NCBI GenBank assembly: GCA_964573775.1
Contig: CAZNKU010000002.1
Location: 9,286-73,285 of the forward strand
Direction: 5' to 3'
Length of the DNA: 64,000 nt
Source: an uncultured Clostridiaceae bacterium
GTDB lineage: Bacteria; Bacillota; Clostridia; Monoglobales; Firm-18
This document shows positions 9,186 to 57,803 of this stretch, one piece after another; the stretch's first letter is position 1; every line of letters begins with the position of its first letter. A program made the translations under genes and the position numbers. A model generated the notes under the pieces. That model saw nothing but the letters and a program-made list of their open reading frames with translations. It searched no databases and was not told the origin of the DNA.

Positions 9186-9189
9186 TTTA

Positions 9190-10657: not shown

Positions 10658-10671
10658 TGGGGATATAAATC

Positions 10672-11607: not shown

Positions 11608-11627
11608 TTTTCATAAAAAGGATTTTA

Positions 11628-12692: not shown

Positions 12693-12705
12693 AGGTGTTT
12701 TTGCT

Positions 12706-13221: not shown

Positions 13222-13223
13222 AA

Positions 13224-14324: not shown

Positions 14325-14329
14325 AATAT

Positions 14330-15418: not shown

Positions 15419-15442
15419 ATATATTGTGAGAGGAGAAGGTAA

Positions 15443-16708
15443 GTGAATTATTGTATAAAAGAAAAAAATGGGAAAAGCATACTAGAGTCTAAAAATGGCA
15501 TAAATAATTTTCTTGCCTTTGCAACACTTTTGCTTTTAGTCTTATCCCAAAATAAGGATTGGGGAAGCACTAGCTTTTTGTGGTGGGGTGCAGTAGGGCT
15601 ATTTATGGTTACGGTTGTTCTTTCAAATAATTTAAAGTTTTATTTGGATGTTGGATATACAACCTGGGTTGTATCGTTTTTACTTATATGCTTTTTTTCA
15701 TTAATGTGGGCAGTTGACACTACTCCTGTTATAAATTCATTAAAAAATCTATTAGTCCATTTTACTATATTAATATTATTACGTTCTTCAATAAGAACGC
15801 GTGAAGATATTGAAACTGTATTTAAAGTTATAGTTTTGTCGGTTGTTATTAATTCTGCTTATCTTCTTTTTATTAGTTCAAGTGTTTTAGAACAGGCAAA
15901 AATGGTGGAGAGTGGGGCAGCCAGACTGGGCGAAGAAGGTGCCTGGAATGCCAACGGAATAGGGTTTATGACTTCAAATGCTGTGTTGATTTCCTTGTTT
16001 TTTTTCAAAAAAACCAAGAAAAATTATGTGAAGTTAATTAATATTTGTATAATTGTATTGACTTGTGTGGTTACTTTGTTGACCGGATCGCGTACTGCGA
16101 TTCTAAAAGTTGCTGCAGGTTTAGCATTGTTTACATATTTTAGTTATAATGGTAAACGGTTTAAAGCAGTGTTAATTATTTTGATTCTGTTGATTGTACT
16201 ATACTGTGTTATGATGTATGTGCCCTTATTTTACTCTATTATCGGTTGGAGAATGGAAGGGTTGTTTGCAATGTTTACAGGTGTAGGTGAAATTGAATCC
16301 AGTGCTGATATACGCGATAAATTTATAGGAGATGCAATAGAAAGATGGAAGGAAAGGCCAATTTTAGGTTATGGGCTTGATTGTTACAGAAGGGTTAATA
16401 CAATAAAACAAAATTATTATTCCCATAATAATTTTGTTGAATTGTTGGCTGATTTAGGTGTGGTAGGATTTATTGCATTCTATATTGCACACATAAAGAA
16501 TTTGTTTATATTATTCAAATTCAAAAAGGATGATAGTATGAAGTGGTTTTTGATTACAGCTATTATTGTGGTGCTGCTTTCTGACTATGGTACAATTTCA
16601 TACCATAACCTTTTGACTATGTCATTGATTATGTTGTCTTTCGCATATATTACAATTTGCAAAAGGGAGGAACAAAAATATGATATCGAGAATCAAAGCG
16701 ATGTATAG
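15443..16708 (+). CDS. wzy: O-antigen polymerase/ligase-family membrane protein (Wzy-like)
   Basis: About 10-12 TM segments with a large loop containing GSRTA and HNNFVELLADLG, as in Wzy_C. Confidence 0.6.
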   Translation: MNYCIKEKNGKSILESKNGINNFLAFATLLLLVLSQNKDWGSTSFLWWGAVGLFMVTVVLSNNLKFYLDVGYTTWVVSFLLICFFSLMWAVDTTPVINSLKNLLVHFTILILLRSSIRTREDIETVFKVIVLSVVINSAYLLFISSSVLEQAKMVESGAARLGEEGAWNANGIGFMTSNAVLISLFFFKKTKKNYVKLINICIIVLTCVVTLLTGSRTAILKVAAGLALFTYFSYNGKRFKAVLIILILLIVLYCVMMYVPLFYSIIGWRMEGLFAMFTGVGEIESSADIRDKFIGDAIERWKERPILGYGLDCYRRVNTIKQNYYSHNNFVELLADLGVVGFIAFYIAHIKNLFILFKFKKDDSMKWFLITAIIVVLLSDYGTISYHNLLTMSLIMLSFAYITICKREEQKYDIENQSDV

Positions 16709-17225
16709 AGTATTTAAAGGGCCGTTTAAATGTGCCGTTGAAAATGGGCTTAAGGTCGGGAAGAATGTAAGTTTTGGCGCCAACATTAATTGGGGTTCAG
16801 AACCATATCTGATTACAATTAAAGACAATGTAAGGTTATCAAGCAATATTGTGTTTTTAACTCATGATGGAGGTTCACATGCCTTCAGGGATAAGGATAT
16901 CTATAAGGGTGTAAACAAGTTTGGCAAAATTGTAGTAGAAGAGCATTCATTTATAGGTACTAATGCGATAATTATGCCAAATGTTCGTATAGGTAAACGA
17001 AGTGTTGTAGGTGCAGGCGCAGTTGTTACCAAAAGCGTACCTGACGATTGTGTTGTTGCAGGTATTCCTGCAAGAATTATATGTTCTACTTCCGAGTATG
17101 CAGATAAAATGAAAAGTATGCAAGCAGATTTGGGATGGGATGCCAAAAACTATATGGCAAATAAAAAGGACTATTTGATTAATAATATTCCAGAACCGCC
17201 TGTTGGAAATATTAATAACAAATAA
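16680..17225 (+). CDS. Hexapeptide-repeat acyltransferase
   Basis: IGTNAIIMPNVRIGKRSVVGAGAVV repeats; GGGAGG RBS; 29-nt overlap with wzy. Confidence 0.7.
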   Translation: MISRIKAMYRVFKGPFKCAVENGLKVGKNVSFGANINWGSEPYLITIKDNVRLSSNIVFLTHDGGSHAFRDKDIYKGVNKFGKIVVEEHSFIGTNAIIMPNVRIGKRSVVGAGAVVTKSVPDDCVVAGIPARIICSTSEYADKMKSMQADLGWDAKNYMANKKDYLINNIPEPPVGNINNK

Positions 17226-17235
17226 CGGAGGAAAA

Positions 17236-18126
17236 ATGAATAGTTTTATAAAAGATTTTATATTTAAATTAAATCAAAGAGGTTATTTAAACTTTTTGTC
17301 TGACAAAGCATTTTTGAAATTGATGTTTCGGGTTAGAATGGATAAAAAATTAAACCTAAAAAATCCACAGACGTATAACGAAAAATTACAATGGCTAAAG
17401 CTTTATGACAGAAATATTGAATATTCAAAGCTTATTGATAAGTATGAAGTAAAAAAATACGTGGCTGATTTAATTGGTGATGAATATGTAATTAAAACTT
17501 TGGGTGTATGGGATAATTTTGATGATATAGATTTTGATAAATTGCCCAAGCAGTTTGTTTTAAAGTGTACTCATGACAGTGGTGGTCTTGTAATTTGTGA
17601 TGATAAAGAAAAACTTGATATAAATGAAGCTAAGGCAAAAATAGAAAGCTGTTTGAAAAAAGATTATTACAAACACGGACGAGAATGGGTTTATAAAAAT
17701 GTAAGCCATCGTATAATTGCAGAGGAATATATGAAGGATAGTAAGACCAATGAGTTGCGTGACTATAAATTCTTTGCTTTCGATGGTGAGGTAAAGGCGG
17801 TATTTATTGCTACTGACAGGCAGCTTAAGGATGAGGAAACCAAATTCGATTTTTATGATGATAAATTTAATCATTTGCCGTTTACCAATGGACATCCTAA
17901 TGCAGATGTGCCTCCTGAAAAACCGGAAAATTTTGAAAAGATGAAGGAACTTGCATCAATCCTTTCAAAAGGCTTGCCCCATGCAAGGGTAGATTTCTAT
18001 GAGGTTGATGGTAAAATTTATTTTGGTGAAATTACCTTTTTCCATTGGAGCGGTATGGTGCCTTTTGAACCTGAAGAGTGGGATTATACTTTTGGTTCAT
18101 GGATAAAATTACCTGAGAAACGATAA
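17236..18126 (+). CDS. TupA-like ATP-grasp amidoligase
   Basis: NPQTYNEKLQWLKLYD, FVLKCTHDSGG, DYKFFAFDGE, RVDFYEVDGKIYFGEITF match the ATPgrasp_TupA family as I recall it. Confidence 0.7.
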   Translation: MNSFIKDFIFKLNQRGYLNFLSDKAFLKLMFRVRMDKKLNLKNPQTYNEKLQWLKLYDRNIEYSKLIDKYEVKKYVADLIGDEYVIKTLGVWDNFDDIDFDKLPKQFVLKCTHDSGGLVICDDKEKLDINEAKAKIESCLKKDYYKHGREWVYKNVSHRIIAEEYMKDSKTNELRDYKFFAFDGEVKAVFIATDRQLKDEETKFDFYDDKFNHLPFTNGHPNADVPPEKPENFEKMKELASILSKGLPHARVDFYEVDGKIYFGEITFFHWSGMVPFEPEEWDYTFGSWIKLPEKR

Positions 18127-18138
18127 CAAGGAGTTGTA

Positions 18139-19245
18139 TTGTATATGAGAGCATTGTTGGGCAAAATATGGCGAAATTTTAATGAAAAGAGAATTTTAAG
18201 AAAAGCGCTTAGAAGCAGAGTAAAAAAAATGAAGGACAGGCGTCGCCAGGAAATTGCAAACAAATATATTTTAACTAAAGAACAAGAAAAGCAAATTGAT
18301 AAGTTATATCTCAGTACATATGGAAAAAAAATCCCCTATGATTGGCATAAGTTTTATTCGGCATATACAAAAAACTTTGATGTAAATTATATTCCTGAAT
18401 TGATTTTTTTACCAATAATAGAGAAAAAATTCAACAATCAGAAATATGTGTCGGCATTTTCCGATAAAAACTTGTTACCATTTTATGTTAGCGGATTAGA
18501 AAATGTAAAAACCCCGAAAATATTTTTATCTTCCGCAAATGGTTTTTATAGAGATGAAAATTATAATTTGATTACCAAGGATCAGGCAATCAATTTGCTT
18601 TCAAATCTTCGTTGTTTTGGAAAACCGACTGTTGATTCCAATTCGGGCAATATGTGTGCTGTATATAACTTCGAAAATGGTATAGATATAATTTCCAAAA
18701 AGACCGTAGAACAAGTTATTGATAATATGGGAAAGAATTTTTGTTTCCAGGAACTTATTTCTAATTGCGAAAGTGTCAGAAGGTTGCATGAAAATAGCTT
18801 GAATACATTTAGAATTACTACTTATTTGTGGAATGATAAGGTTTGGCATGCGCCGATGGTTATGAGAATTGGGCAAGGAAATTCGCTTCTTGATAATGTC
18901 CATCAGGGTGGGATGTTTATTGGCGTTTCTGATAGCGGAGAATTAGCCGAATGTGCCTTCACAGAATTCCTGGACAAATTTTATGTTCATCCTGATTCTA
19001 AAATAGAATTTAAAGGCTATTGTGTTCCAGAAGCAAAAAAAGCTCTTGAGGCTGTAAAAAAGATTCATCAAAGAATACCACAGATGGGATTAGTGGCATG
19101 GGATGTAATTGTAAATGAAAAAGAAGAAGTAGTCGTTATTGAGATGAATGTTTTTGGACAGGGACCCGAAGCATCACAAAAGGCGAATGGTCAAGGACTG
19201 TTTGGCGAAAATACGGCAGAAATTTTGACTTGGATAGGAAAATAA
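18139..19245 (+). CDS. Sugar-transfer-associated ATP-grasp protein (ATPgrasp_ST-like)
   Basis: FRITTY, NVHQGGMFIGV, VAWDVIV..VVIEMN pattern; start ambiguous (TTG 18139 or ATG 18145). Confidence 0.55.
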   Translation: MYMRALLGKIWRNFNEKRILRKALRSRVKKMKDRRRQEIANKYILTKEQEKQIDKLYLSTYGKKIPYDWHKFYSAYTKNFDVNYIPELIFLPIIEKKFNNQKYVSAFSDKNLLPFYVSGLENVKTPKIFLSSANGFYRDENYNLITKDQAINLLSNLRCFGKPTVDSNSGNMCAVYNFENGIDIISKKTVEQVIDNMGKNFCFQELISNCESVRRLHENSLNTFRITTYLWNDKVWHAPMVMRIGQGNSLLDNVHQGGMFIGVSDSGELAECAFTEFLDKFYVHPDSKIEFKGYCVPEAKKALEAVKKIHQRIPQMGLVAWDVIVNEKEEVVVIEMNVFGQGPEASQKANGQGLFGENTAEILTWIGK

Positions 19246-19344
19246 TTTTATTTTGCCGAGGTGTGTTTTTGAGTGCTTTATATCCTATATGATTAGGTAG
19301 ATTATATATTGCCAGGTAAATATTATTGTGTGAGGGGTGTTTTT

Positions 19345-20250
19345 ATGGATTTGGTAACATGTGCAATTACAACACATAAACGCAAACCGGAAATTGTTGA
19401 AAGAGCATTGAAGAGTATATTGAATCAAACACATAAAAATATTGAGGTTTTTATTGTTGATGACAGTCCTGCTGATTGGGAATACCGCAGTGAAGTGAAA
19501 AATATGGTTGAATCATATTCGGAGCATAATGTTATGTATATCGCTCACGAAGAATGCATGGGAGCATGTGTAGCAAGAAATACAGCCCTTGAAAATGCCA
19601 AAGGTGTATACATAGGTTACCTTGATGACGATGATGAATGGTGTCCGGACAAGATAGAAAAACAATTGCAAGGATTCACTAATAAAAATATAGCTCTTGT
19701 ATATTGTGATCATAAAATTATATACGATGGAACAGATAGGGTGAAAAATATAGTATCTGAAAAGCACTCCGGCTATGTGTTTGATAAATTGTTTTTCAGT
19801 AATTTCATAGGTTCTACATCTTTTCCCTTGATAAAAACAAAATGTTTAAAAGAAATTGGCGGATTTGATCCACTTATGCCTGCAGCACAGGATTATGATG
19901 TGTGGATTAGAATTGCAGAGAAATATGAAGTTAATTATGTGTCAGCGGAACTTGTTGTGTATCATGCTCACGAGGGAGAACAAATTACTAAAAATCCAGC
20001 TAAAAAAAACAATGGATTAAAGAGGATTATGGAAAAGCATAAAGATTACTTAAATGCTAACAAAGAGGCTTATTGGGTGCGTTATATGAAGCTGATTCTT
20101 TCACACATGAATGCAAAACAATATTCTGAAGCATTAAGATGTTGGAGAAAGGCTGCTTTTAAGTGTCCGCTAAAAATTACAGAAAATTTACATTATTTGT
20201 ATTTAATATTTGCAAAGATGTTTGTTAGTATAAGAGATAGAAAAAAATAA
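19345..20250 (+). CDS. Family 2 glycosyltransferase
   Basis: GAGGGG RBS before the ATG at 19345; NQTHKNIEVFIVDDS and LDDDDEW motifs. Confidence 0.75.
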   Translation: MDLVTCAITTHKRKPEIVERALKSILNQTHKNIEVFIVDDSPADWEYRSEVKNMVESYSEHNVMYIAHEECMGACVARNTALENAKGVYIGYLDDDDEWCPDKIEKQLQGFTNKNIALVYCDHKIIYDGTDRVKNIVSEKHSGYVFDKLFFSNFIGSTSFPLIKTKCLKEIGGFDPLMPAAQDYDVWIRIAEKYEVNYVSAELVVYHAHEGEQITKNPAKKNNGLKRIMEKHKDYLNANKEAYWVRYMKLILSHMNAKQYSEALRCWRKAAFKCPLKITENLHYLYLIFAKMFVSIRDRKK

Positions 20251-20279
20251 ATCTTTTGGGATTGATGGGAGAAAGAAAT

Positions 20280-21443
20280 ATGAAAAAGTATATTCTGGTT
20301 ACCGGCGGAGAACTCCGAAATAAAGGAGCTCAGGCAATGACATTTATTACAGTTGACCAAATTGCAAAGAAATTTCCTGAATACCGTGTTGTTTTATTGG
20401 ACGGCTACGATTATAGTGAGGGACTAACGAAAAATTTAAAGTTTCAATTTACAAAATTAGCAAGAATACGATATATGCTTAATTGCTTAAAACCTTGGAA
20501 AAATCCATTTCCAAAAAAATATGAAGTTTCTGAAATTTTTAATAATTTGGCAGGGGTTGTGGATATAAGCGGATACAGACTTGGGTCAAATTGGCCTGAT
20601 CATACTGTTAAGTCATACATACGAACCATTTTTTTTGCCAAACATCTTGGCGTACCGGTATATTTGATGCCGCAATCTTTCGGACCGTTTGAATTTAAGG
20701 GAAAAAACAAGTTTATACTTAATACTTTAATAAAGAGATATCTTAAATATCCAAAGGTTATAATGGCAAGAGAAACCGAAGGGTATAATTGGCTTTGTGA
20801 AAAGTATAAACTTAAAAATGTAGTTAAAACCCCTGACCTTGTACTGCAGAACACAGGTATTGATTTAGCCAATATTTTTCATAAAGTTCCCGAAACATTT
20901 AAACTTTCCGTACGTGAAAACAGTGTTGCCATAATTCCAAACAGTAAAAATAATAAATTTGGAAATAAAGAAGAAATAATGATTTTGTATAAAAATATTA
21001 TAGATATGCTTTTGGAAAAAGGGAAGTATGTATATCTTTTGTATCATGCAAAAGAAGATTTGTCCATTTGCAGAGAAATGAAAGAATTGTATACGGAAAA
21101 TGAAAATGTAATTCTCGTAGAGCAGGAGTTGGGATGTATAGAATACGGTGATTGTGTTGGTAAGTTTGATTATATTATAGGCTCCAGATATCATTCCATA
21201 GTTCATGCATACAAGGAATATACACCTGCAATAGTTTTTGGATGGGCAACCAAGTACAGAGAACTTGCAGAAATGTTCGGACAGGAAGGTTATTGCTTTG
21301 ATGTACGAAATTCTATGAATACAGAAAATATATTGAATAAAATTGAAATTATGTGTAATCTTTTTGATGAAGAATCTCAAAAAATCAAAAAAGTTATGAA
21401 TGAGGTTCAAAGCAGTAATGTATATGATTATTTAGAATTTTAG
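20280..21443 (+). CDS. Polysaccharide pyruvyl transferase (WcaK/CsaB family)
   Basis: MKKYILVTGGELRNKGAQAM start and SRYHSIVHA region typical of PS_pyruv_trans. Confidence 0.65.
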   Translation: MKKYILVTGGELRNKGAQAMTFITVDQIAKKFPEYRVVLLDGYDYSEGLTKNLKFQFTKLARIRYMLNCLKPWKNPFPKKYEVSEIFNNLAGVVDISGYRLGSNWPDHTVKSYIRTIFFAKHLGVPVYLMPQSFGPFEFKGKNKFILNTLIKRYLKYPKVIMARETEGYNWLCEKYKLKNVVKTPDLVLQNTGIDLANIFHKVPETFKLSVRENSVAIIPNSKNNKFGNKEEIMILYKNIIDMLLEKGKYVYLLYHAKEDLSICREMKELYTENENVILVEQELGCIEYGDCVGKFDYIIGSRYHSIVHAYKEYTPAIVFGWATKYRELAEMFGQEGYCFDVRNSMNTENILNKIEIMCNLFDEESQKIKKVMNEVQSSNVYDYLEF

Positions 21444-21452
21444 AGGTGTAAA

Positions 21453-22970
21453 ATGAGCGAAAGTAGAACTAAAAATGCTTCAAGGAATATAATTTTCGGT
21501 TTTGCTAACAGGTTTGTGGTACTTTGTCTTCCCTTTGTTACGAGAACAATCATCTTGTATTTGCTTGGTTCGGAATATTTAGGCATAGGCACATTATTTT
21601 CATCTGTACTTAGTTTTCTTAATCTTGCAGAATTGGGTTTAGGCAGTGCAATAGTTTATTCTATGTATAAACCGATTGCAGAAAATGATGTTGTCAAAAT
21701 TGGAGCACTATTGAATTTTTACAAAAAGTTGTACAGGCTTATCGGTATAGTTATTTTAGCAGTTGGGTCCATGTTGGTGCCATTTATACCATATTTAATG
21801 AAGGGCGGAGCACCGCAAAATCTTAATCCATACTTGCTTTATTATTTATACCTTATAAATTCCGTTATAAGTTATTTCTTTGCAGGATATAAACAGAGTC
21901 TTTTGACATCCCATCAAAGAAGTGACATTATTAGTAATATTTCGACGCTTATAAGTATATTTATACAGATAGGACAGATTGTTCTTTTGTGTGTAACAAG
22001 GAGTTTGTATACATACGCAATCGTTCCGATTTGCGGAACAATTCTTACAAATATATGTATAGCTATTATTACAAAAAGAAAGTATCCTGACATAAAATGC
22101 GAAGGGGATATTTCATCAGATATCAAGAATGAAATTAAGACTAAAATAGGTGGTTTGTTTGGAACAAAGCTTAACAGTATTGTTGTTCACTCTGCAGACA
22201 CTTTGATTATTTCAGCATTTCTGGGTCTTAGTATGACAGCAAAATACGGAAACTATTACTATATTATGAATGCAATATGCGGTTTTATTATGGTATTTTA
22301 TTCATCAATGACGGCAGGTATAGGTAACAAACTTGTGGTTGATTCCATAGAGGAAAACTATAAATTCTTTAAAAATATGAATTTTATCAATGCATGGCTT
22401 GTTGGTTGGTGCAGTATTTGTCTGCTGTGCCTGTATGAACCGTTTATGGAGCTTTGGGTCGGAGACAGTATGAAACTGGGCATTGTATTTGTAATACTTA
22501 TGGTTGTATATTTTTACATATATATGATTCAAAGAAATATGCTAACATTTAAAGATGCAGCAGGACTTTGGAATAAGGATTGGATGAGGCCTTATATTTC
22601 CATGTCTTTGAATGTTGTTTCTAATTTGGTTCTGGTAAGGTTTATTGGCATTTATGGAATAGTTGTTTCAACGATTCTGGCATTTTTAATATCTGTTCCG
22701 TGGGTAACCAGTGTGTTGTTTAAGAATCTGTTTAAGATGTCACCCGCAAAAAATCTTTTTGCAATCTTTAAATATTCTATATTTACTATTGCTATTGCAT
22801 GTGTTACATATTTTATTTGCGGATTGTGTATGGAAGGGTTTATAGGTTTGATACAGCGTGCAATAATCTGCTGTGTTGTGCCTAATATATTTTTTATATT
22901 GTTTTTCTTTAAGACTGCAGAGTTTGCTTATTTAAAGGATTTTATTCTTAAGAAGGTACTTAAACATTAA
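21453..22970 (+). CDS. wzx: MOP-superfamily polysaccharide flippase (Wzx)
   Basis: 505 aa, about 14 TM segments, N-terminal RNIIFGF..R pattern. Confidence 0.7.
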   Translation: MSESRTKNASRNIIFGFANRFVVLCLPFVTRTIILYLLGSEYLGIGTLFSSVLSFLNLAELGLGSAIVYSMYKPIAENDVVKIGALLNFYKKLYRLIGIVILAVGSMLVPFIPYLMKGGAPQNLNPYLLYYLYLINSVISYFFAGYKQSLLTSHQRSDIISNISTLISIFIQIGQIVLLCVTRSLYTYAIVPICGTILTNICIAIITKRKYPDIKCEGDISSDIKNEIKTKIGGLFGTKLNSIVVHSADTLIISAFLGLSMTAKYGNYYYIMNAICGFIMVFYSSMTAGIGNKLVVDSIEENYKFFKNMNFINAWLVGWCSICLLCLYEPFMELWVGDSMKLGIVFVILMVVYFYIYMIQRNMLTFKDAAGLWNKDWMRPYISMSLNVVSNLVLVRFIGIYGIVVSTILAFLISVPWVTSVLFKNLFKMSPAKNLFAIFKYSIFTIAIACVTYFICGLCMEGFIGLIQRAIICCVVPNIFFILFFFKTAEFAYLKDFILKKVLKH

Positions 22971-22994
22971 AACAATATGATGGGAGTAGGTAAT

Positions 22995-23954
22995 ATGAGG
23001 ATAAAAGAAAAAATCAAGACAGTGGCAAACATGATTGTCAGGAAAAGTTCTTATAAGGATTTATTTAATAATTATCAAAAAAGATATGTAAAAAACACTT
23101 TTGGTAATGGTGTATATGTTAATTACAGTCAATATGAAGCTGTTATTACCAAAATGTATCATACAGTTGAAAAGGGTTTGTCCTATGTTGATTACAGAGC
23201 AGGTTTTGGGGAAAAGGCGATTTTTGAATTGGTTGATACTATGGAAAAGTATAGCCGTAATTATGATGTTAATGCTTTCTTTTATCAGACTGCACTTTGT
23301 ACATTATATGAATATATTGAAAAAAACAGAAAATACGGCTACGAAAATAAAGAATTAGAATCAAAAATAAAAAATCTTTCAGGTATGCCAAATGAGGTTG
23401 GAGGAATTATTACTTTTAATCCTGAAAATATACCTGCTGATTTTGAAGAATTTGTTATGAGCCGTCACAGCATAAGGGAATTTTCCAATGTGCCTGTGGA
23501 TGTTGAAAAACTTGTCTCGGCAATTAAACTTTCTCAGCATACTCCCTCAGCATGTAACCGTCAGGGGTGGAAAACAAGAATTGTTGCAGATAAAGACGTC
23601 TTAAGAACTATTCTTAATAACCAGAACGGAAACAGGGGATTTGGAGATAAAATTGATAAATTATTGGTTATAACATGTGATTTGTGTTATTTTAATAAAA
23701 GCAGAGAAGTGCATCAGGCTTTTATAGATGGAGGTATGTATGCAATGAATATATTGCATAGTTTGCACTATAATAAAATTGCCACAATTCCACTAAGTGC
23801 TTCGTTGAATGTAGTTCAGGATGAAAATGTCAGAAAAGCGATAAATATGAAGAATTCGGAAATTTTGATTATGTTTATTGGCGTGGGCAATTATCCAGAA
23901 ACTTGTCAGACTACAAGATCCGAAAGAAGAAAAGCTGATATTGAAATAATATAA
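22995..23954 (+). CDS. Nitroreductase-fold protein with an N-terminal extension of about 150 aa
   Basis: SRHSIREF, PSACNRQ, NGNRGF motifs in the C-terminal 170 aa. Confidence 0.55.
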   Translation: MRIKEKIKTVANMIVRKSSYKDLFNNYQKRYVKNTFGNGVYVNYSQYEAVITKMYHTVEKGLSYVDYRAGFGEKAIFELVDTMEKYSRNYDVNAFFYQTALCTLYEYIEKNRKYGYENKELESKIKNLSGMPNEVGGIITFNPENIPADFEEFVMSRHSIREFSNVPVDVEKLVSAIKLSQHTPSACNRQGWKTRIVADKDVLRTILNNQNGNRGFGDKIDKLLVITCDLCYFNKSREVHQAFIDGGMYAMNILHSLHYNKIATIPLSASLNVVQDENVRKAINMKNSEILIMFIGVGNYPETCQTTRSERRKADIEII

Positions 23955-23969
23955 CATTGGAGAGATTTT

Positions 23970-25145
23970 ATGAAATGTGTTGAGAGATTTCAAAATACGT
24001 ATAATAAAGAACCTGACGGTATTGCCTTTTGTCCGTATAGGATTTGTCCAATTGGTGCACATTCCGACCATCAGTACGGCAAAATAACCGGACTTGCCAT
24101 AGACAAGGGTATTCATATTGCTTATGGACCAAAGAAAAACGGAGTTATAGAGCTTGTTTCAATGCAGTTTAACAAGCGGGCACAGTTTCATGTTGCAAGC
24201 ATTCCGAAAACTCCTCAAAATGACTGGGCAGATTATTTGCGAGGGGCAGCTTTTGCGTTGGCAAAAAATCATGACCTTGAAGTTGGGCTTTGCGGAGTTA
24301 TAGAAGGTAGCTTGCCAATTGGCGGTCTTTCATCTTCCGCAGCGGTTATTATTGCATTTTTGTCAGCACTTTGCACAGTAAACAAAATAAAAATATCTAA
24401 GCAGGAACTTATTATGACGGCACTTTCTGCGGAAAATAATTACGTTGGTGTATCATGCGGAAAGCTTGACCAGTCATGTGAAGTGTACAGCAAGAAAAAG
24501 CATTTGCTTTACCTTGATACAAAGGATGACAGCTACGAGCTTATTCCTCAGAACCCTGATATGAAACCTTATGAAATTGCAGTTTTCTTCAGCGGTGTAG
24601 AGCGTTCTCTTGCAGGCTCTGCTTTTAATATGAGGGTTGACGAATGCCGAAGCGCCGCATATGCACTTAAGGCGTATGCCGGTTTGGAATATGGGAAATT
24701 CGATGAAACGAACCTTCGCGAAGTGCCATATGAGGTGTATTTGAAATATAAGGAAAGGTTGCCCGAGAACTGGGCAAAACGAGCTGAACATTGGTATACA
24801 GAATATATGCGTGTTGAAGTCGGAGTAGAAGCATGGCGAAAGGGAGATATAGAAACATATGGCAAACTTTCCTTTGAAAGCGGAAGAAGTTCCATTGAAA
24901 ATTGGGAAACAGGCTCGCCTGAACTTAAATCTATATATGAAATAATGCTTGAAACCGATGGTATATACGGAGGGCGTTTCAGTGGTGCAGGCTTTAAAGG
25001 TTGCTGTATGGCGCTCATAGACCCTGCATTCAAAAAAGAAATTTCAAAAAATGTTACCGAAAAATATCTTGCAATGTTTCCGCAGTATAAAGATACATTT
25101 TCAGTACATTTTTGTAAATCTGCAGATGGTTGCAAAATAAAATAA
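23970..25145 (+). CDS. GHMP sugar-1-kinase, galactokinase family (substrate unassigned)
   Basis: PYRICPIGAHSDHQ and PIGGLSSSAA GHMP motifs; GGRFSGAGFKGC. Confidence 0.7.
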   Translation: MKCVERFQNTYNKEPDGIAFCPYRICPIGAHSDHQYGKITGLAIDKGIHIAYGPKKNGVIELVSMQFNKRAQFHVASIPKTPQNDWADYLRGAAFALAKNHDLEVGLCGVIEGSLPIGGLSSSAAVIIAFLSALCTVNKIKISKQELIMTALSAENNYVGVSCGKLDQSCEVYSKKKHLLYLDTKDDSYELIPQNPDMKPYEIAVFFSGVERSLAGSAFNMRVDECRSAAYALKAYAGLEYGKFDETNLREVPYEVYLKYKERLPENWAKRAEHWYTEYMRVEVGVEAWRKGDIETYGKLSFESGRSSIENWETGSPELKSIYEIMLETDGIYGGRFSGAGFKGCCMALIDPAFKKEISKNVTEKYLAMFPQYKDTFSVHFCKSADGCKIK

Positions 25146-25157
25146 GGGGATTATAAT

Positions 25158-25895
25158 ATGATATGCTTAATATTAGCGGCAGGTTATGCCACAAGACTTT
25201 ATCCACTAACTGAAAATTTCCCAAAGCCTCTTTTAAAGGTTGGGGAAAAGACAATTCTTGACCACCTTACAGATGACATATATTCCGGTGGCAAGATAGA
25301 AGAATTTATTGTTATTTCCAACCACAAGTTTGCACAGCATTTTGAGGATTGGGCAAAAACAAAGGAATATAAAATCACAGTAGTTGATGACGGCACAAGC
25401 ACTAACGAAACACGCCTTGGAGCAGTCAAGGATATTAAGTTTGCCATTGATAAATTAAATTTAAGTGATGATATGCTGATTATAGCAGGGGATAATGTCC
25501 TCGATTTTTCTCTTAATAAATTTGTTGATTATGCAATATCTAAAAATTCAAGTGCTGTAATGAGATATTTTGAGGGTGAAAAGAAAAGATTGCAAAAGTG
25601 CGGCGTTTTAGAACTTGATGATGCTGATTTAATTAAAGGTATGGAGGAAAAACCTCAAGAACCAAAATCTAATTGGTGTTGTCCGCCCTTCTATTTCTAT
25701 AAAAAAGATGATATTTCAAGAATTGGAGAGGCAATATCTGACGGATGCGGTGTAGATGCACCGGGAAGCTTGGTTTCCTGGATGTGTAAAAAATCATCAG
25801 TTTATGCTTTTGAAATGCCCGGTTCAAGATATGACATCGGCAACCTTGAAAGTTATGAAAAAGTACAAGAGGAGTATAAAGGAATAACATGCTGA
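25158..25895 (+). CDS. Sugar-1-phosphate nucleotidyltransferase
   Basis: LILAAGYATRLYPLTENFPKPLL signature. Confidence 0.75.
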   Translation: MICLILAAGYATRLYPLTENFPKPLLKVGEKTILDHLTDDIYSGGKIEEFIVISNHKFAQHFEDWAKTKEYKITVVDDGTSTNETRLGAVKDIKFAIDKLNLSDDMLIIAGDNVLDFSLNKFVDYAISKNSSAVMRYFEGEKKRLQKCGVLELDDADLIKGMEEKPQEPKSNWCCPPFYFYKKDDISRIGEAISDGCGVDAPGSLVSWMCKKSSVYAFEMPGSRYDIGNLESYEKVQEEYKGITC

Positions 25896-26962
25896 TACCT
25901 AATGTTGATCTCAATAACAAAACAATAATGGTTACAGGGGCTGCAGGGTTTGTAGGTGCAAATCTTGTTATGGAGCTTTTAAATTCATATGACAATGTTA
26001 ATATTATCGGTGTAGATAATCTTAATGATTATTACGATGTTTCCATAAAGGAATACCGTCTTTCAGAGATAGAAAAGCTTGTTGTCCAAAAGCCTGAAAG
26101 TAACTGGACATTAGTAAGAGGAAGTATCGCAGACAGACAGCTTATGGATAGTATTTTTGAAGAATACAGACCAAATGTAGTTGTAAACCTTGCTGCACAG
26201 GCGGGTGTAAGGTATTCTATTACAAATCCTGATGTATACATAGAATCAAACATTATAGGATTTTATAATATTTTAGAAGCCTGCAGAAAGTATCCTGTTG
26301 AGCATTTAGTGTATGCTTCAAGCTCATCAGTTTACGGTTCAAACAAAAAAATACCATATTCAACAGACGATAAGGTAGATAACCCTGTTTCACTTTATGC
26401 GGCTACCAAAAAGTCTAATGAACTTTTGGCACATTCGTATTCCAAACTTTACAATATTCCGTCAACAGGTTTAAGATTTTTTACTGTATATGGACCTGCG
26501 GGCAGACCGGACATGGCTTATTTTGGATTTACAAACAAGCTTTTAAAGGGTGAAACCATACAAATATTTAACTTTGGTAACTGCAAAAGAGATTTCACCT
26601 TTGTGGACGATATAGTTGAGGGTGTAAGAAGAGTTATGGAATGTGCACCGGAAAAGGAGGATGGTGAAGATGGTTTACCGTTGCCTCCGTACAGAGTTTA
26701 CAACATCGGTAATAACAGTCCGGAAAACTTGTTGGACTTTGTAGATATACTTCAACAAGAACTTATCAATGCAGGTGTGTTGCCTGAAGATTATGACTTT
26801 GAAGCACACAAAGAACTTGTGCCTATGCAACCCGGAGATGTTCCTGTTACCTACGCAGATACATCAGCACTTGAGCGTGATTTTGGTTTTAAGCCATCCA
26901 CAAGTTTGCGTGATGGATTGCGTAAATTTGCAGAGTGGTATAAAACGTTTTATAATTGCTAA
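25889..26962 (+). CDS. NAD-dependent epimerase, UDP-glucuronate 4-epimerase-like (CapI/Cap1J type)
   Basis: VTGAAGFVGANL, YASSSSVYG, YAATKK (YxxxK) and overall resemblance to the CapI family. Confidence 0.7.
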   Translation: MLIPNVDLNNKTIMVTGAAGFVGANLVMELLNSYDNVNIIGVDNLNDYYDVSIKEYRLSEIEKLVVQKPESNWTLVRGSIADRQLMDSIFEEYRPNVVVNLAAQAGVRYSITNPDVYIESNIIGFYNILEACRKYPVEHLVYASSSSVYGSNKKIPYSTDDKVDNPVSLYAATKKSNELLAHSYSKLYNIPSTGLRFFTVYGPAGRPDMAYFGFTNKLLKGETIQIFNFGNCKRDFTFVDDIVEGVRRVMECAPEKEDGEDGLPLPPYRVYNIGNNSPENLLDFVDILQQELINAGVLPEDYDFEAHKELVPMQPGDVPVTYADTSALERDFGFKPSTSLRDGLRKFAEWYKTFYNC

Positions 26963-29790: not shown

Positions 29791-32490
29791 TTATTTTGTA
29801 TTCTTCCTGTCCACTATTCTGCAAATTATTTTTATTAACTCAACTATAGGAATTATGAGAATTGCAAGACCAAAAGCAATTCCGTATTCCATAAGGTCAA
29901 GATGTGCAAGTTCAAATGCTTTTGTAAGGAAATCAACTTCAATAACGAGAGTTGTGAGCACAAGTGACAGAACACCTGCACCCCATAGCCACAAGTTTTG
30001 ACCCTTCATTTTGAAAATTGAACCGTGGAGTGATCTCATATTGAATGCATGGCATATCTCACAAAGAGAAAGTGTAAGGAAAGCCATAGAGGTACCCAGC
30101 ATTTCCGCAGAATATGTTCCCTGAGAGATAGCTTCCGCATGATGAAGGTCTGCAAGCCAATATCTTCCCAAAAGATAAGAAACCATAGTAATGATAGTTA
30201 CAAGCACACCCTGGTAAGCAACTGCGAAACCAAGACCGCCTGAGAAAATACCTTCCTTGCTGTCACGTGGTTTACGATTCATAATGCTTGCTTCGGGCTT
30301 TTCCATACCAAGTGCAAGTGCAGGGAAACAGTCTGTAATAAGATTTATCCAAAGCAAATGAACAGGTGCGAAGATTGTAAATCCGAAAAGTGTGGCAAAG
30401 AAGATTGTCAGCACTTCTGAAAGATTTGATGCAAGAAGAAACTGTATGGCTTTTCTTATGTTGTCATAAATTCTTCGTCCTTCACCAGCTGCTGAAACAA
30501 TGGTAGCAAAGTTATCATCGGCAAGAATCATATCAGCTACATTTTTTGTAACATCTGTACCTGTGATACCCATACCTACACCGATATCTGCATTTTTGAT
30601 TGAAGGGGCATCATTAACGCCATCACCTGTCATAGCGGTAACCTTTCCCTTCTTTTTCCAGGCGTTTACAATTCTCGTTTTATGTTCGGGCTGAACACGG
30701 GCATAAACCGAATATTTTTCTACAGCAATATCAAATTCATCGTCAGAAATATCATCAAGATCTGCACCTGTAATAGCATTGGATGCATCTGTAATAATGC
30801 CAAGCTGCATTGCGATAGCAACTGCGGTGTCTTTATGGTCACCTGTAATCATTATGGGGCGGATGCCGGCGTTTCTACACTCGTCAATTGCAGGCTTAAC
30901 TTCAGGGCGTACAGGGTCAATCATGCCGACAAGACCTATAAAGCAAAGTTCACATTCGACATTTTGCGAGTCATACACTGAAGGTTCGGCAGAAAGGTCC
31001 TTCTTGGCTGCTGCAAGAACACGAAGTGCGCGGTCAGCCATTTCCTTGTTTGCGTCAAGTATGTTTTTGCGGATTTCGTCTGTGATTTCTACAACATTAC
31101 CGTCAATAAGTGCTTTTGTGCATCTCTTTAAAAGCTCGTCAGGGGCACCCTTTGTAAACTGAATAAGAGAACCGTCAGCAGTCTTGTGAATGGTTGACAT
31201 CATCTTTCTTCCGGAATCAAAGGGAACTTCTCCGATTCTGACAAACACATTTTTCTGAGTGTTTTTGGAAATACCAAGTGTTTCAGCATAGTTGACGAGG
31301 GCACATTCGGTAGGTTCGCCCACAGCAGTGTTGGCATCTGTATCAAACTCTGCATCTGAACAAAGTGACATAGCATTTGCAAGGAGAGTTTCGTCTTCAC
31401 CGTAGTGATCAACAACTGTCATTTTATTTTGTGTAAGAGTACCTGTTTTATCTGAACAGATAATCTGAGTGCATCCAAGAGTTTCAACAGCGGTAAGCTT
31501 ACGGATGATAGCATTACGCTTTGACATATTGGTAACACCGATAGAAAGAACAATGGTTACAACAGTGGCAAGACCTTCCGGAATTGCCGCAACTGCAAGG
31601 GAAATAGCAATCATAAATGAATTCAGAAATGAATTCATAATAGGTTCACGACCGATAACGCCACGAATAATCTGAACAGCAAAAATGACGATACAGATAC
31701 CTATAACGAGATAGGTAAGAATTTTTGAAAGACCTGCAAGCTTAATCTGAAGAGGTGTTTTGCCTTCCTCTGCCTGAGCGAGAGCATCTGCAATTTTACC
31801 CATTTCAGTTTCCATACCTGTAGCTGTTACAACTGCCTTACCACGTCCGTAAACGACAGTTGAACCCATAAACACCATATTTTTTCTATCACCGAGAGCA
31901 ACGTCACCGTTTGCTCCCGCTGTAAGAGCGTCAACCTTTTTATCTACGGGAACTGATTCTCCGGTAAGAGCTGATTCCTCAATCTTCATAGAGGCACAGT
32001 CAATAATTCGTGCGTCTGCCGGAACTGAATCACCAGCTTCAAGAACTATAATATCACCTACAACCAGGTCTTCGCTGGGTATGGATATCTGCCTTCCGTC
32101 ACGTATGACCTTACTCTGTGCCTTAGACATTTCCTGTAGAGCTTCAATTGCTTTTTCTGCCTTGCTTTCCTGAAAAACGCCTAAAATAGCATTGATAAGA
32201 ACAACTGCAAGGATAATAACCACATCAGAAGGAAAACCCATGGAGCCCGAATGAATACCCTCGTAGATTTCTACGCCTGCAGAAATTGCAGCGGCAACCA
32301 ACAGGATAATTGTCATAGGCTCACAAAGCTGTTTTAAAAAGCGATGGAGCATTGACTCCTTCTTTGCCTCAATAAGTTTGTTTTTGCCGTTTTTGTCAAG
32401 TCTTGCTGTTGCCTCTGAAGAACTTAAACCGTCATTATTACTGTCAACGGTCTTAATTACATCTTCAGCGTTGCTTAAATAATGTTTCAT
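29791..32490 (-). CDS. P-type IIA cation-transporting ATPase (Ca2+/Mn2+-type)
   Basis: CSDKTGTLT, TGDGVNDAPS and IPEGL motifs; 899 aa; GGAGGAG RBS. Confidence 0.9.
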   Translation of the reverse strand: MKHYLSNAEDVIKTVDSNNDGLSSSEATARLDKNGKNKLIEAKKESMLHRFLKQLCEPMTIILLVAAAISAGVEIYEGIHSGSMGFPSDVVIILAVVLINAILGVFQESKAEKAIEALQEMSKAQSKVIRDGRQISIPSEDLVVGDIIVLEAGDSVPADARIIDCASMKIEESALTGESVPVDKKVDALTAGANGDVALGDRKNMVFMGSTVVYGRGKAVVTATGMETEMGKIADALAQAEEGKTPLQIKLAGLSKILTYLVIGICIVIFAVQIIRGVIGREPIMNSFLNSFMIAISLAVAAIPEGLATVVTIVLSIGVTNMSKRNAIIRKLTAVETLGCTQIICSDKTGTLTQNKMTVVDHYGEDETLLANAMSLCSDAEFDTDANTAVGEPTECALVNYAETLGISKNTQKNVFVRIGEVPFDSGRKMMSTIHKTADGSLIQFTKGAPDELLKRCTKALIDGNVVEITDEIRKNILDANKEMADRALRVLAAAKKDLSAEPSVYDSQNVECELCFIGLVGMIDPVRPEVKPAIDECRNAGIRPIMITGDHKDTAVAIAMQLGIITDASNAITGADLDDISDDEFDIAVEKYSVYARVQPEHKTRIVNAWKKKGKVTAMTGDGVNDAPSIKNADIGVGMGITGTDVTKNVADMILADDNFATIVSAAGEGRRIYDNIRKAIQFLLASNLSEVLTIFFATLFGFTIFAPVHLLWINLITDCFPALALGMEKPEASIMNRKPRDSKEGIFSGGLGFAVAYQGVLVTIITMVSYLLGRYWLADLHHAEAISQGTYSAEMLGTSMAFLTLSLCEICHAFNMRSLHGSIFKMKGQNLWLWGAGVLSLVLTTLVIEVDFLTKAFELAHLDLMEYGIAFGLAILIIPIVELIKIICRIVDRKNTK

Positions 32491-32544
32491 TTTTCTCCTC
32501 CTGTCAAAAATTTATATAATAATAATTTTATTATGTGCAAAAAT

Positions 32545-32713
32545 AAAAAAGTGTTTCAAAAAACACATTAGCTCCCTGTCTCCGCTGTCCGCTACGGTCG
32601 TTGATAGGCGATTGCCACCGGCAAGCATCAACCCTCAATCTTGAGGGGATCAAGGTACACTTTTGTGTAATATAGAAAATTGCAAAAGTATCAATTTTCT
32701 ATAAGATAAAAAA
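32545..32713 (-). repeat. Intergenic structured repeat, copy 1 (long form with an extra GC-rich module of about 50 nt)
   Basis: Shares the ATCTTATAGRAAATTG..CAATTTYCTATATTACACAAAAGTGYACCTTRATCCCC..CAAGATTG..GGG core with 43761-43891; ends in GTGTTT/AAACAC hairpin plus T-run on the minus strand. Confidence 0.8.
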
Positions 32714-32830
32714 GACTTTTGCGGCATAACGCCGCAAAAGTCTTGCCATCAAAATAGATCCAAATAACCGGACAAAAAAGTCGAGATGACGGTTATCGGA
32801 AATGCAGAGCATTCAGCTACTCCCTTTTGC
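32708..32830 (-). promoter_or_regulatory. yybP-ykoY-like (Mn2+-type) riboswitch with intrinsic terminator
   Basis: Minus strand GCAAAAG-GGAGUAG..GGCAAGA-CUUUUGC; the P1 3' strand overlaps the terminator GACUUUUGCGGC-GUUAU-GCCGCAAAAGUC-U6 (32742-32708). Confidence 0.65.
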
Positions 32831-32839
32831 AATATAATA

Positions 32840-32868
32840 ATATTATCACAAAAACAAAATATTGTCAA
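32840..32868 (-). promoter_or_regulatory. Sigma-A promoter driving the riboswitch leader
   Basis: Minus strand TTGACA (32868-32863), N17, TAATAT (32845-32840) with a TGn extended -10; aptamer begins about 10 nt downstream. Confidence 0.65.
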
Positions 32869-43749: not shown

Positions 43750-43760
43750 TAGGGAATGTA

Positions 43761-43891
43761 AAAAAGTGTTTAGAAAAAACACTTCAACCCCCTGCCCCCA
43801 ATCTTGGGGGATTAAGGTGCACTTTTGTGTAATATAGGAAATTGCAAAAGTGGAAATTGCAAAAGTGGCAATTTCCTATAAGATAAAAAAA
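43761..43891 (-). repeat. Intergenic structured repeat, copy 2 (contains a 15-nt internal tandem duplication)
   Basis: Same core as 32545-32713; GAAATTGCAAAAGTG occurs twice (43838-43867); AAGTGTTT/AAACACTT hairpin plus T-run on the minus strand. Confidence 0.8.
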
Positions 43892-43965
43892 GCGCAGAAC
43901 ACAAAAAGAAATTTATGTTTTGTTTATGAATGGTACAATTTTAAAAGAAGAATATTGAGTTTGTT

Positions 43966-44001
43966 GAAAAGCTGAATTTGATTTCGGCTTTTCTCTTTTT
44001 T
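43966..44001 (+). terminator. Strong hairpin plus T-run (terminator-like)
   Basis: GAAAAGCTGAA (43966-43976) / TTCGGCTTTTC (43983-43993), then TCTTTTTT. Confidence 0.6.
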
Positions 44002-44102
44002 GTTCTTTTGCTACAAACAAACGTTCGCCTTCGCAGTATAAACATACAACTTTGGCTCAGTTTGTTCGTTCTGCATCTTTTTTTCCTATTCCACGGAACA
44101 TT

Positions 44103-56238: not shown

Positions 56239-56378
56239 CCTTGACTTTTTTTAATTTTTATGTTAAATTTAATTCATATTAAATATACTGCCACCGGGTA
56301 GTGAATGCAAAGCATTCGTTTTCACATCGTTAGGTCTTTGAAGATGTGAATTCGGATGTTATTTTTTTGGAGGTATGT

Positions 56379-57070
56379 ATGAATTTGTCAAATCCGTTTA
56401 AAAAGCTTACCCATTTTGAATTGGGTTTGTGGTTTACATCTGTTATTGTAACAGCTATATCCTTTTTGGTGTCGGGAGGTGGAGATATTTTAACACTTAT
56501 AGCATCACTTATCGGTGTTACCGCACTTATTTTTCTGGCAAAGGGTTATGTTATAGGTCAGGTGCTCTGTATTATATTTGCAATTTTTACGGTATTATAT
56601 CATTTTATTTTAAATATTACGGAGAAATGCTCACGTATTTGTGTATGACCACGCCCGTTGCATTTGCATCTTTAATATCGTGGATAAGACATCCTTATAA
56701 GGATTCCGAAGAGGTAGAAGTCAGCAGGGTAACTAAAAAACACAAAGTTTTACTTGTGGTTTACACAATACTTGTAACGGTAATATTTTACTCTATACTT
56801 TCGGCACTTGATAATGCCAATTTACTTTTCAGCGTAATTTCTGTCAGCACAAGTTTTGTGGCATCTTATCTTACATACTTAAGAAGTCCATACTACGCAC
56901 TTGGTTATGCAGCAAACGATGTTGTACTTATAATACTTTGGGTGCTGGCATCTATTGAGGATATCAGCTATATGCCGATGATAATGTGTTTTGTAATGTT
57001 TTTGTTAAATGATATTTATGGCTTTTATAACTGGAAGCGTATGCAAAGTTGTCAGTCGGCTGACATATAA
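56379..57070 (+). pseudogene. pnuC: Nicotinamide riboside transporter PnuC, interrupted by a 1-nt frameshift in a T5 run (56584-56588)
   Basis: The N-terminal part (..GQVLCIIFAIF) is in the frame of 56346-56648 and the rest (YGIISFYFKYYGEM..) in the frame of 56429-57070; one extra T joins them. Confidence 0.75.
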
Positions 57071-57073
57071 AAA

Positions 57074-57110
57074 CGGCAGAGAATGCAATTCATTCTCTGC
57101 CGTTAATTTT
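57074..57110 (+). terminator. Terminator after pnuC
   Basis: CGGCAGAGAATG (57074-57085) / CATTCTCTGCCG (57091-57102), then TTAATTTT. Confidence 0.8.
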
Positions 57111-57149
57111 CTATAATACACAAAAGTGTACCTTAACCCTACAAGATTG
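57107..57149 (+). repeat. Intergenic structured repeat, copy 3 (truncated core only)
   Basis: TTTTCTATAATACACAAAAGTGTACCTTAACCCTACAAGATTG matches the core of copies 1 and 2 in the opposite orientation. Confidence 0.7.
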
Positions 57150-57152
57150 TTT

Positions 57153-57803
57153 TTATTTTGCTACATTTTCAAAGGGGGTTTTGCTGAATATTTCTTTTGT
57201 AATACCGTTATCCAGTACCAAATATCTTTCGGTAACTTCAACTGTTTTGTTGTAAGAATCCGGTTTGGATACGTATCTTACAATTATAATATTATCCACT
57301 CTGGTATATGTTCCGCTGTATACTATCTTTCCTTCCGAATTTTCTGAATCCACAGTACCGTCATCCATAAACCACAGGCGTTCAACAACTTTTCCGTCTT
57401 CTTCATACGCGAAGGCACAGTTCCAAAGTTTTTCGTTACTGGTTTTTCCTTTGTAGACCTTATCTTTTCTGTAAATAAAATCGTCAGATGTCTGAACAAA
57501 TGTATACGCATCACTGCTTTCGTAGGTAAGGGTTATTTCATTATTGTTTTGCGACCATGTACCTTTGCTTACATCTGCAGTGCTTTCATCAGTCTGAACT
57601 GTGTATGAAAATGTATTATCTTTGTTGAATTGCAGACGCTTATCGGTAGCTTGCTGATAGTAGTATATACCCTCACCGCTGTATACTTTATTGTTTATGT
57701 TACGATAAATTTTTACACCTGCTATTACTGCTATAATTATTACAATTGCAATAATTCCCAAAAAGATTTTTTTGTTTTTCTTATTTATAAATTTAGATGC
57801 CAA
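57153..57803 (-). CDS. Membrane-anchored hypothetical protein
   Basis: N-terminal TM, then a beta-rich ectodomain of about 180 aa; no recognisable motifs. Confidence 0.35.
   Translation of the reverse strand: MASKFINKKNKKIFLGIIAIVIIIAVIAGVKIYRNINNKVYSGEGIYYYQQATDKRLQFNKDNTFSYTVQTDESTADVSKGTWSQNNNEITLTYESSDAYTFVQTSDDFIYRKDKVYKGKTSNEKLWNCAFAYEEDGKVVERLWFMDDGTVDSENSEGKIVYSGTYTRVDNIIIVRYVSKPDSYNKTVEVTERYLVLDNGITKEIFSKTPFENVAK

Follow-up and report, generated by a model that had tools for sequence, protein, structure and literature searches.

The repeat described here is a mobile, non-autonomous insertion element of 112-176 nt that encodes no protein and whose precise insertion point is almost always the end of an intrinsic terminator's T-tract. 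Three copies lie in the 64-kb window, that is, the whole stretch of DNA analysed, at essentially the positions given in a preliminary description. W1, a long form of 167 nt, occupies 32543..32709 on the minus strand, with boundaries set by the family alignment and an empty site; W2, a short form of 129 nt, occupies 43758..43886 (-); and W3, a decayed remnant, lies at 57105..57149 on the plus strand. They share a 20-nt core, TACACAAAAGTGYACCTTRA, found at 32650 (-), 43812 (-) and 57117 (+). With up to three mismatches allowed, these are three matches in the window against 0.07 expected, a number reached in 0 of 100 shuffles. W1 matches the covariance model of the family with 114 bits, and neither this model nor an nhmmer profile detected a copy beyond W1-W3 in the 64-kb window.

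More than 25 further copies were found across at least nine genomes of uncultured Clostridia, in one metagenome and at one prophage border. The original view of a dispersed, modular, hairpin-rich intergenic repeat, which rested on the three window copies, holds. An exact 18-mer scan covering one genome per species yielded 15 family copies in six uncultured Clostridia assemblies, with at most six per genome; the same scan also returned eight chance matches elsewhere. Seven more copies came from one metagenome and one from a predicted viral contig, where it sits at a prophage border beside host genes, while additional copies were found in L006, L037 and L083. The flanks are different in every copy, and many contigs break off within the element, as contigs typically do at repeats. 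The flanking proteins have homologs labelled Clostridia, Ruminococcaceae or Oscillospiraceae, and the hosts belong to an Oscillospiraceae/Ruminococcaceae-type clade of uncultured gut Clostridia. The repeat is previously undescribed and has no sequence match to anything annotated. Rfam gave chance-level matches only, whether the whole window was searched at the gathering threshold or the surroundings of W1 and of the ATPase leader were scanned permissively, and the long-form consensus had no blastn match among GenBank phages and PLSDB plasmids, in agreement with the initial failure to recognise a known family.

The anatomy of the element was read from an alignment of 26 copies from elsewhere with the window copies. 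On the sense strand, and still outside the element, lies a host terminator hairpin with a T-run ending in NTTAT. The element itself starts with CT, followed by hairpin H1, a 13-bp AT-rich stem with a variable loop of 7-22 nt, then by the invariant core TTACACAAAAGTGYACCTTAAT and the G+C hairpin P1. The latter occurs in two variants, CCCCCA/TGGGGG and CCCCTCA/TGAGGGG, the difference being a compensated inserted base pair. An optional GC-rich module of 53-55 nt may follow P1; a G-run and TTGAWGTG then precede the terminal hairpin, the final GTG already being the start of that hairpin, and the right end consists of a weak hairpin, GTGTTT..AAACAC, and TTTTTTAT. Both junctions obey the rule NTTAT|CTTATAGG ... 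CACTTTTTTAT|. There are three length classes: long copies of 167-176 nt, including W1, short copies of 117-129 nt, including W2, and one copy of 112 nt. No ORF is conserved across copies in the family alignment, and inspection of the alignment revealed no terminal inverted repeats when the left end (TTATCTTATAGG) was compared with the reverse-complemented right end (ATAAAAAAGTGTTT). Each end has a hairpin close by, at a distance of 2 nt on the left and 8 nt on the right; the sequences of the two, H1 (TATAGGAAATTAC) and the terminal hairpin (GTGTTT), show no relationship to each other.

Since the hairpin GTGTTT..AAACAC with T6AT is conserved in every full copy, it must be the element's own right end. 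In copies 1 and 2, where it forms the low-coordinate end, it had been read as a host terminator. The hairpin at 32712-32744, which had been assigned to copy 1 as its own end, is in fact the host terminator: it differs from copy to copy and also occurs at the orthologous site that lacks the element. The orientation of the repeat had likewise been inverted. The sense strand of copies 1 and 2 is the minus strand, the only one on which a hairpin plus T-run forms there.

W1 is located between the terminator of an ATPase leader and the ATPase ORF, in surroundings made up of a conserved promoter-leader-terminator unit and this ORF. The host intrinsic terminator of the leader (32712..32744 (-), 15 pairs in the terminator scan) lies directly 5′ of W1 and is its insertion target. 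Within W1, H1 is a 12-bp AT-rich stem, TATAGAAAATTG/CAATTTTCTATA, with a 9-nt loop (32671..32703 (-)), and its right arm contains the sequence TATATT. The core TTACACAAAAGTGTACCTTGAT (32649..32670 (-)), whose columns are invariant or nearly so in the family alignment, is mostly unpaired and the most conserved segment of the family. It is followed by P1 (CCCCTCA AGAT TGAGGG, 32632..32648 (-)) and by the 53-nt GC-rich module that marks the long form (32579..32631 (-)). The right end of W1, the weak hairpin GTGTTT-TTGA-AAACAC and TTTTTTAT (32543..32566 (-)), is kept in all full copies; it resembles a terminator and mimics the insertion target. The GC-rich module had been noticed before as an extra segment of W1, and it is indeed present there with about the size then given, yet it is not confined to W1 and recurs in at least ten copies elsewhere, including those in L006 (both copies), L023, L024, L026, L027, L029, L030 and L037. 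A peptide encoded in the module was considered and rejected, the frame being shifted by indels in L006 and L027. As a further and rather doubtful possibility, the module could act as an RNA scaffold, e.g. a guide-RNA remnant, that helps the element persist.

A SleB-like hydrolase gene and a CwlD-like amidase gene converge on W2, which carries, as first described, a 15-nt tandem duplication in the H1 loop (CACTTTTGCAATTTC twice, 43838-43867). The truncation of the third copy was also correctly recognised. W3 retains the right arm of H1, the core and the 5′ half of P1, while the left arm and loop of H1 and the 3′ half of the element have been lost in two internal deletions. Directly 5′ of W3 the terminator scan placed a host bidirectional terminator (57072..57104 (+)), and a residual T-tract, TTTTTAT, remains on its 3′ side (57150-57156 (+)).

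Paired substitutions keep the three hairpins intact. Between W1 and W2, both of the pairs of changes originally pointed out were recovered, i.e. TATAGAAAATTG/CAATTTTCTATA versus TATAGGAAATTG/CAATTTCCTATA in the first hairpin and CCCTCA..TGAGGG versus CCCCCA..TGGGGG in the second, and in a model-based alignment of 21 full copies the covariation stands above both shuffled and slid controls. In this alignment 97.3% of the cells pair, compared to 39-58% when the partner columns are moved by 1-3 positions, and five pairs are changed on both sides versus 1.1 +/- 0.9 in shuffles, of which 0/500 reach five. With further copies elsewhere and covariation above the controls, neither of the two outcomes that the preliminary description had named as refuting it has come about. 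The independent compensatory events are few, roughly four. They comprise G-C to A-T and A-T to G-C double changes in H1, the inserted U-A pair in P1 and a rebuilt, compensated terminal stem in L006 copy 2 (GTGTGAC/GTCACAC). The sense strand folds far more stably than shuffled sequences (z = -5.3 to -6.0), and the antisense strand does so equally well (z = -6.7). Wobble pairs show no clear strand bias, with nine G.T on the sense strand versus five A.C. Given this lack of preference, the hairpins could matter in RNA or in single-stranded DNA, or they could persist via repair within palindromes. Alternative pairings can also be drawn, between the core and the 3′ tail (AAAAGUG/CACUUUU) and between the distal G-run and ACCUU. 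That the unpaired core is the most conserved part suggests, as judged from the alignment, that it may serve as a sequence-specific recognition site.

The choice of target is the most distinctive property of the element. A hairpin of -12 kcal/mol or better is found within 44 nt upstream of 22/24 copies, and the median for a set of 22 copies is -18.3 kcal/mol versus -3.7 kcal/mol at control sites before TTTTAT (Mann-Whitney p = 4e-12); W3 and L083 were scored separately from this set and both qualify. Among unoccupied intergenic T4-6AT sites in the same DNA, only 13-27% have such a hairpin. Insertion is co-oriented with the host terminator. The five nucleotides to the left are TTTAT in 17 cases, CTTAT in three, ATTAT in two and GTTAT in one, so that NTTAT precedes the element in 23/23 scorable copies. 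The sequence to the right is not conserved, and specificity therefore resides in the left flank only; the right end of the element itself reads TTTAT in most copies. No strong hairpin lies upstream of W2 or L006 copy 1, the remaining two copies, although both come after T6-7AT. The flanking T-tracts differ in length and sequence between copies (TTTCTTAT, TTTTATTAT and GCGTTAT are examples from the host side), whereas the terminal T6 + AT of the element has a constant length. The terminal hairpin of the element is also much weaker, with approximately -4 kcal/mol compared to -12 to -27 kcal/mol for the host terminators. This precise and co-oriented placement behind NTTAT at terminator T-tracts did not figure in the preliminary description.

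Two empty sites document the insertion directly. The first concerns the ATPase leader. In L038/L039, where the ATPase is 92% identical, the hairpin of the leader is present without the element and the site reads AAAAGTCTTTTTTGTTTTTGCGC (in a longer form ...AAAAGTCTTTTTTGTTTTTGCGCATAATAA), while the window and L037, a closer relative with 98% identity, have AAAAGTCTTTTTT[ATCTTATAG...AAACACTTTTTT]ATTTTTGCAC (longer form ...AAAAGTCTTTTTT[ATCTTATAG...GAAACACTTTTTT]ATTTTTGCACATAATAA). The second is provided by L084/L085, in which the host hairpin of W3 is followed by an uninterrupted TTTTTTAT. There, the empty site GCCGTTTTTTAT|CTTGCCAC (in sense orientation and longer form CTCTGCCGTTTTTTAT|CTTGCCAC) corresponds to the occupied site GCCGTT[remnant]TTTTTATTTTGCTAC at W3 (longer form CTCTGCCGTT[AATTTTCTATAATACAC...CAAGATTG]TTTTTATTTTGCTAC). 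W3 is thus an old T-tract insertion that has since undergone two internal deletions. Another species, L083, contains an independent full copy in this intergenic region, behind a different terminator. Five relatives (L032-L036) lack W2 between the orthologous genes, but as the intergenic region there is otherwise not alignable, we have counted the W2 locus as presence/absence evidence only. Both empty sites are compatible with insertion without target duplication; the element ends in the target's own TTTTTTAT, and a duplication of up to 8 nt would also be compatible with them. We had also considered W1 and L006 copy 1 as orthologous insertions upstream of one gene, an idea that was rejected when the two large proteins turned out to be unrelated.

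The best explanation of these data, to which we assign a probability of about one half, is a small mobile terminator-targeting element that is most likely moved as single-stranded DNA by an HUH/Y1 transposase provided from elsewhere in the genome. We infer the single-stranded movement and the Y1-type enzyme from hallmarks held in common with IS200/IS605-type elements. Cleavage by a transposase of this type would fall 3′ of two TTTAT sequences, the one in the flank and the one that terminates the element. The right end, a hairpin with T6 and AT, has the shape of the target, a terminator hairpin with T-run and AT, and in this model either the enzyme would read that shape or folded terminators would expose the T-tract as single-stranded DNA. 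If moved in this way, the element would be a palindrome-associated, bcr1-like non-autonomous derivative. Its own 3′ hairpin being weak, the element should be tolerable even inside a 5′ leader, and this fits the presence of W1 in such a position in two lineages. A more far-reaching proposal, which we regard as rather doubtful, is that movement is directed by DNA structure, the predicted single-strand transposase or another enzyme recognising 'hairpin + T-tract + AT' as such; the element would then be the DNA-transposon counterpart of class C group II introns, with every genomic terminator a safe landing site.

The likeness to IS200/IS605 derivatives (PATE) lies in the absence of terminal inverted repeats, in hairpins near both ends and in a specificity limited to the left flank. 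Insertion 3′ of TTTAT, TTAT or ATTAT is a further trait in common with these derivatives, IS606 and IStrons; a target duplication is not evident at either empty site, within the ambiguity set by TTTTTTAT. IS606 inserts beside 5′-TTTAT or TTAT (PMC3154945), and group A IStrons, which are of the IS200/IS605 type, insert 3′ of TTGAT, ATTAT or TTTAT; they are specific for the 5′ flank only, have subterminal palindromes, lack terminal inverted repeats and do not duplicate the target (PMC4227781). There are also differences. The left and right hairpins of the present element are unrelated and H1 abuts the left junction, so that the pattern of similar subterminal palindromes does not apply; the end geometry of IS608 and ISDra2 differs from an H1 that starts 2 nt from the left junction. 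To our knowledge, a near-obligate association with terminator hairpins is not a described feature of the IS200/IS605 family either. Neither a cognate TnpA nor a full-length parent of the element was found in the DNA searched, and together with the unrelated end hairpins and the position of H1 this counts against strict membership in the family.

The searches for a mobilising gene were as follows. As already stated in the preliminary description, the window contains no transposase, according to the ORF list and a Pfam search with ten unassigned ORFs. In ~270 kb of family-associated DNA, phmmer gave no match with IS200 TnpA, a weak negative as the query was an approximate sequence. An all-against-all comparison of the ORFs around copies revealed no recurrent mobilisation gene, recombinase or reverse transcriptase; only AraC-type, DeoR-type and ABC-transporter paralogs were shared in this comparison. 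A longer parent with the same ends was not found in the 18-mer genome scan, the metagenome or the viral contigs. On the latter, the left-end pattern gave 42 matches, all of them due to chance in coding DNA except L023, and the pattern of the GC module matched L023 only. The orientation of copies with respect to local GC skew (14/27) was uninformative.

The repeat had also been discussed as a possible small structured RNA, and one alternative is a multi-copy family of small-RNA or cis-acting RNA genes whose spread would be a side effect of an RNA-based function. The TATATT/TATAAT box of the H1 right arm would direct transcription from a start near ACACAAAAG, giving an RNA of ~75 nt in the short or 125 nt in the long form, with an unpaired 5′ seed (ACAAAAGUGYACCUUAAU), P1 and a terminator, the alternative pairings serving as a switch. 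This seed, hairpin and hairpin with U-run would be a typical sRNA layout. The unpaired and most conserved core does lie directly downstream of the -10-like box, which is a perfect TATAAT in W3, and the truncated copies W3 and L003 retain exactly the part from this box onward. The fold stability, the compensatory changes in P1 and the terminal hairpin and the existence of alternative structures all point in the same direction. However, a consensus scan detected no internal sigma-70-type promoter, and the position of a -35 box would fall within the loop of variable length. The antisense strand folds equally well, the wobble pairs lack a strand bias and the terminal hairpin is weak. Moreover, copies are present or absent at orthologous loci and some are decayed (L008, L016 and W3), and an RNA function would leave unexplained the exact placement after NTTAT at terminators. 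We therefore judge this reading unlikely, although a small RNA could exist alongside mobility.

Two alternatives retain mobility and change its mechanism. A different DNA-based process could be a recombination-like event at TTTAT as proposed for bcr, or the action of a tyrosine/serine recombinase or of a rolling-circle (Y2, IS91-type) enzyme. The presence of TTTAT at both junctions, as reported for bcr1, and the absence of terminal inverted repeats agree with this proposal, and the ambiguity of the junction over TTTTTTAT would be compatible with recombination in a short identical core. Nevertheless, the host T-tracts vary to such an extent that there is no long identical crossover core, no recombinase gene recurs beside the copies, and the process is poorly defined as no enzyme has been identified for bcr1 either; altogether we consider it improbable. 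Movement through an RNA intermediate would have the U-tract at the end of the transcript anneal to the A-run opposite the terminator T-tract and prime reverse transcription in a SINE-like manner, or would let the element ride on the machinery of class C group II introns, which are known to insert after intrinsic terminators (PMC4424553). Co-oriented insertion at a T-tract with T-runs on both sides, and the 5′-truncated copies W3 and L003, would be in line with this idea. On the other hand, W3 also has a 3′ internal deletion and decay is the better explanation for its truncation, the left end is sharp without a promoter to define it, and no reverse transcriptase gene was seen near the copies. 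Rfam detected no ribozyme or intron domains in an element that is far too small for an intron. The 3′ T-run is constant (T6) and followed by a conserved AT, which is unlike RNA 3′ ends and argues for copying from DNA and against copying from the 3′ end of an RNA. An RNA intermediate is in our opinion very improbable, and transposition as single-stranded DNA remains the preferred reading.

No single system with which we have compared the element accounts for all of its features, and the targeting of terminator T-tracts is the trait that sets it apart. Among the closest are the repeats bcr1-bcr18 of the Bacillus cereus group, interspersed, strongly structured, non-coding Firmicutes elements of 100-400 bp with TTTAT at the junctions. 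Their mobility has been linked to TTTAT, and no mobilising enzyme has been identified for them either (PMC6199540, PMC6542083). They occur in another host clade, and blastn against PLSDB, including the B. cereus plasmids reported to contain bcr copies, detected no similarity to our element; the texts consulted on bcr do not mention terminator T-tracts as insertion sites. SPRITEs are also small and AT-rich with a terminator-like hairpin and a T-rich tract, are enriched at gene 3′ ends and between convergent genes, and their mode of mobilisation is not known (PMC3049150). They consist essentially of one 18-bp duplex and a U-rich tract with AAAA/TTTT ends, compared to three hairpins, a conserved unpaired core and an optional module here, and while no empty sites were available for SPRITEs, the present element has two and is located after the host terminator rather than replacing it. 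Group IIC introns insert right after intrinsic terminators in a fixed orientation and whatever the sequence of the stem (PMC4424553). They are ribozyme retroelements, usually with a reverse transcriptase ORF, whereas the 112-176 nt of our element contain no intron domains; in particular, there was no Rfam match to group II intron domains at gathering or E-value thresholds. With classical MITEs, BOX, RUP and ERIC it has in common that it is short, non-coding, structured, intergenic and present in multiple copies, and BOX is also modular. All of these have terminal inverted repeats, and BOX and RUP show target duplications made by DDE transposases (PMC3049150). As the present element lacks terminal inverted repeats, it is not the BOX/RUP/ERIC-type element or classical MITE suggested earlier; nor do its flanking T-tracts, variable in length and sequence, match the fixed-length target duplication of a MITE.

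Terminators are an unusual choice of target for so small an element without genes, and at the same time they are ideal safe havens for selfish DNA. We know only of class C group II introns as elements that target terminators as a class. Such behaviour in a DNA element without genes would suggest that terminator shape can be read in a second, independent way, and the element would make a clean model in which to identify the enzyme responsible in uncultured gut Clostridia. There are practical consequences as well. The covariance model and the junction rule permit annotation of the element, and copies need no longer be confused with sRNAs or riboswitches. Metagenome assemblies break at the element, and 3′ UTRs that contain it gain hairpins and a second weak terminator. 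W1 separates a conserved regulatory leader from a cation-ATPase gene and can thereby alter gene regulation. The ORF upstream of L006 copy 1 even takes its stop codon from the element.

The minus-strand P-type cation ATPase gene (29791-32490) is preceded by a conserved leader of ~125 nt (32712-32868, minus strand), and W1, a long-form copy of the element carrying the optional GC-rich module, now sits between this leader and the ATPase ORF. The leader comprises a promoter of sequence TTGACA-17-TAATAT preceded by TG (32868-32840, minus strand), followed by AAAGGGAGUAGC... and a strong terminator (32744-32712, minus strand). It is present both in L037, a closer relative which carries the element at this position, and in the more distant L038 and L039, where the site is empty. 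A comparison of the leader with Rfam gave no match, and it may represent an unclassified attenuator or riboswitch.

The short-form copy W2 is adjoined by ~215 nt of intergenic DNA (43887-44102) that close relatives lack; their SleB-like and CwlD-like genes lie 28-50 nt apart and have one bidirectional terminator in common. This extra DNA contains a terminator of its own (43966-43993, plus strand).

On locus L006 of the MAG JAZQIO01, a gene of 910 aa lies between two long-form copies (2163-2333 and 5297-5484) that share one orientation. The ORF at 1319-2173, upstream of the first copy, takes its TAG stop codon from that copy, and the terminal hairpin of the second has been rebuilt as GTGTGAC/GTCACAC. 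The single copy in the viral collection is found at a prophage border (L023, 10481-12164 with its neighbours), where a CI/LexA-like repressor stands between the host genes (PheS, a radical SAM enzyme) and the element; a new gene begins immediately past the element's TTTTTTAT. The copy at L003 (1-102, minus strand) lacks the left arm of H1, the left AT-rich hairpin, which is replaced by TTGAAAAGTGTTTAGC. Since the 3′ part of another copy has a similar sequence (TTGAAGTGTTT), the comparison suggests that two elements recombined or were inserted in tandem.

Elsewhere in the window, the plus-strand pnuC-like NMN transporter gene (56346-57070) is 1 nt shorter around position 56583 than in GCA_045591785.1, a deletion that splits it into two ORFs. 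A Logan contig from SRR14307658 carries the same frameshift, and the gene is missing from the corresponding locus of more distant relatives (L083 and L084). Finally, a long plus-strand block of glycosyltransferase-, polymerase- and flippase-like genes (8000-26000) has a G+C content of 0.32-0.36, below that of its flanks, and is probably a surface-polysaccharide locus.
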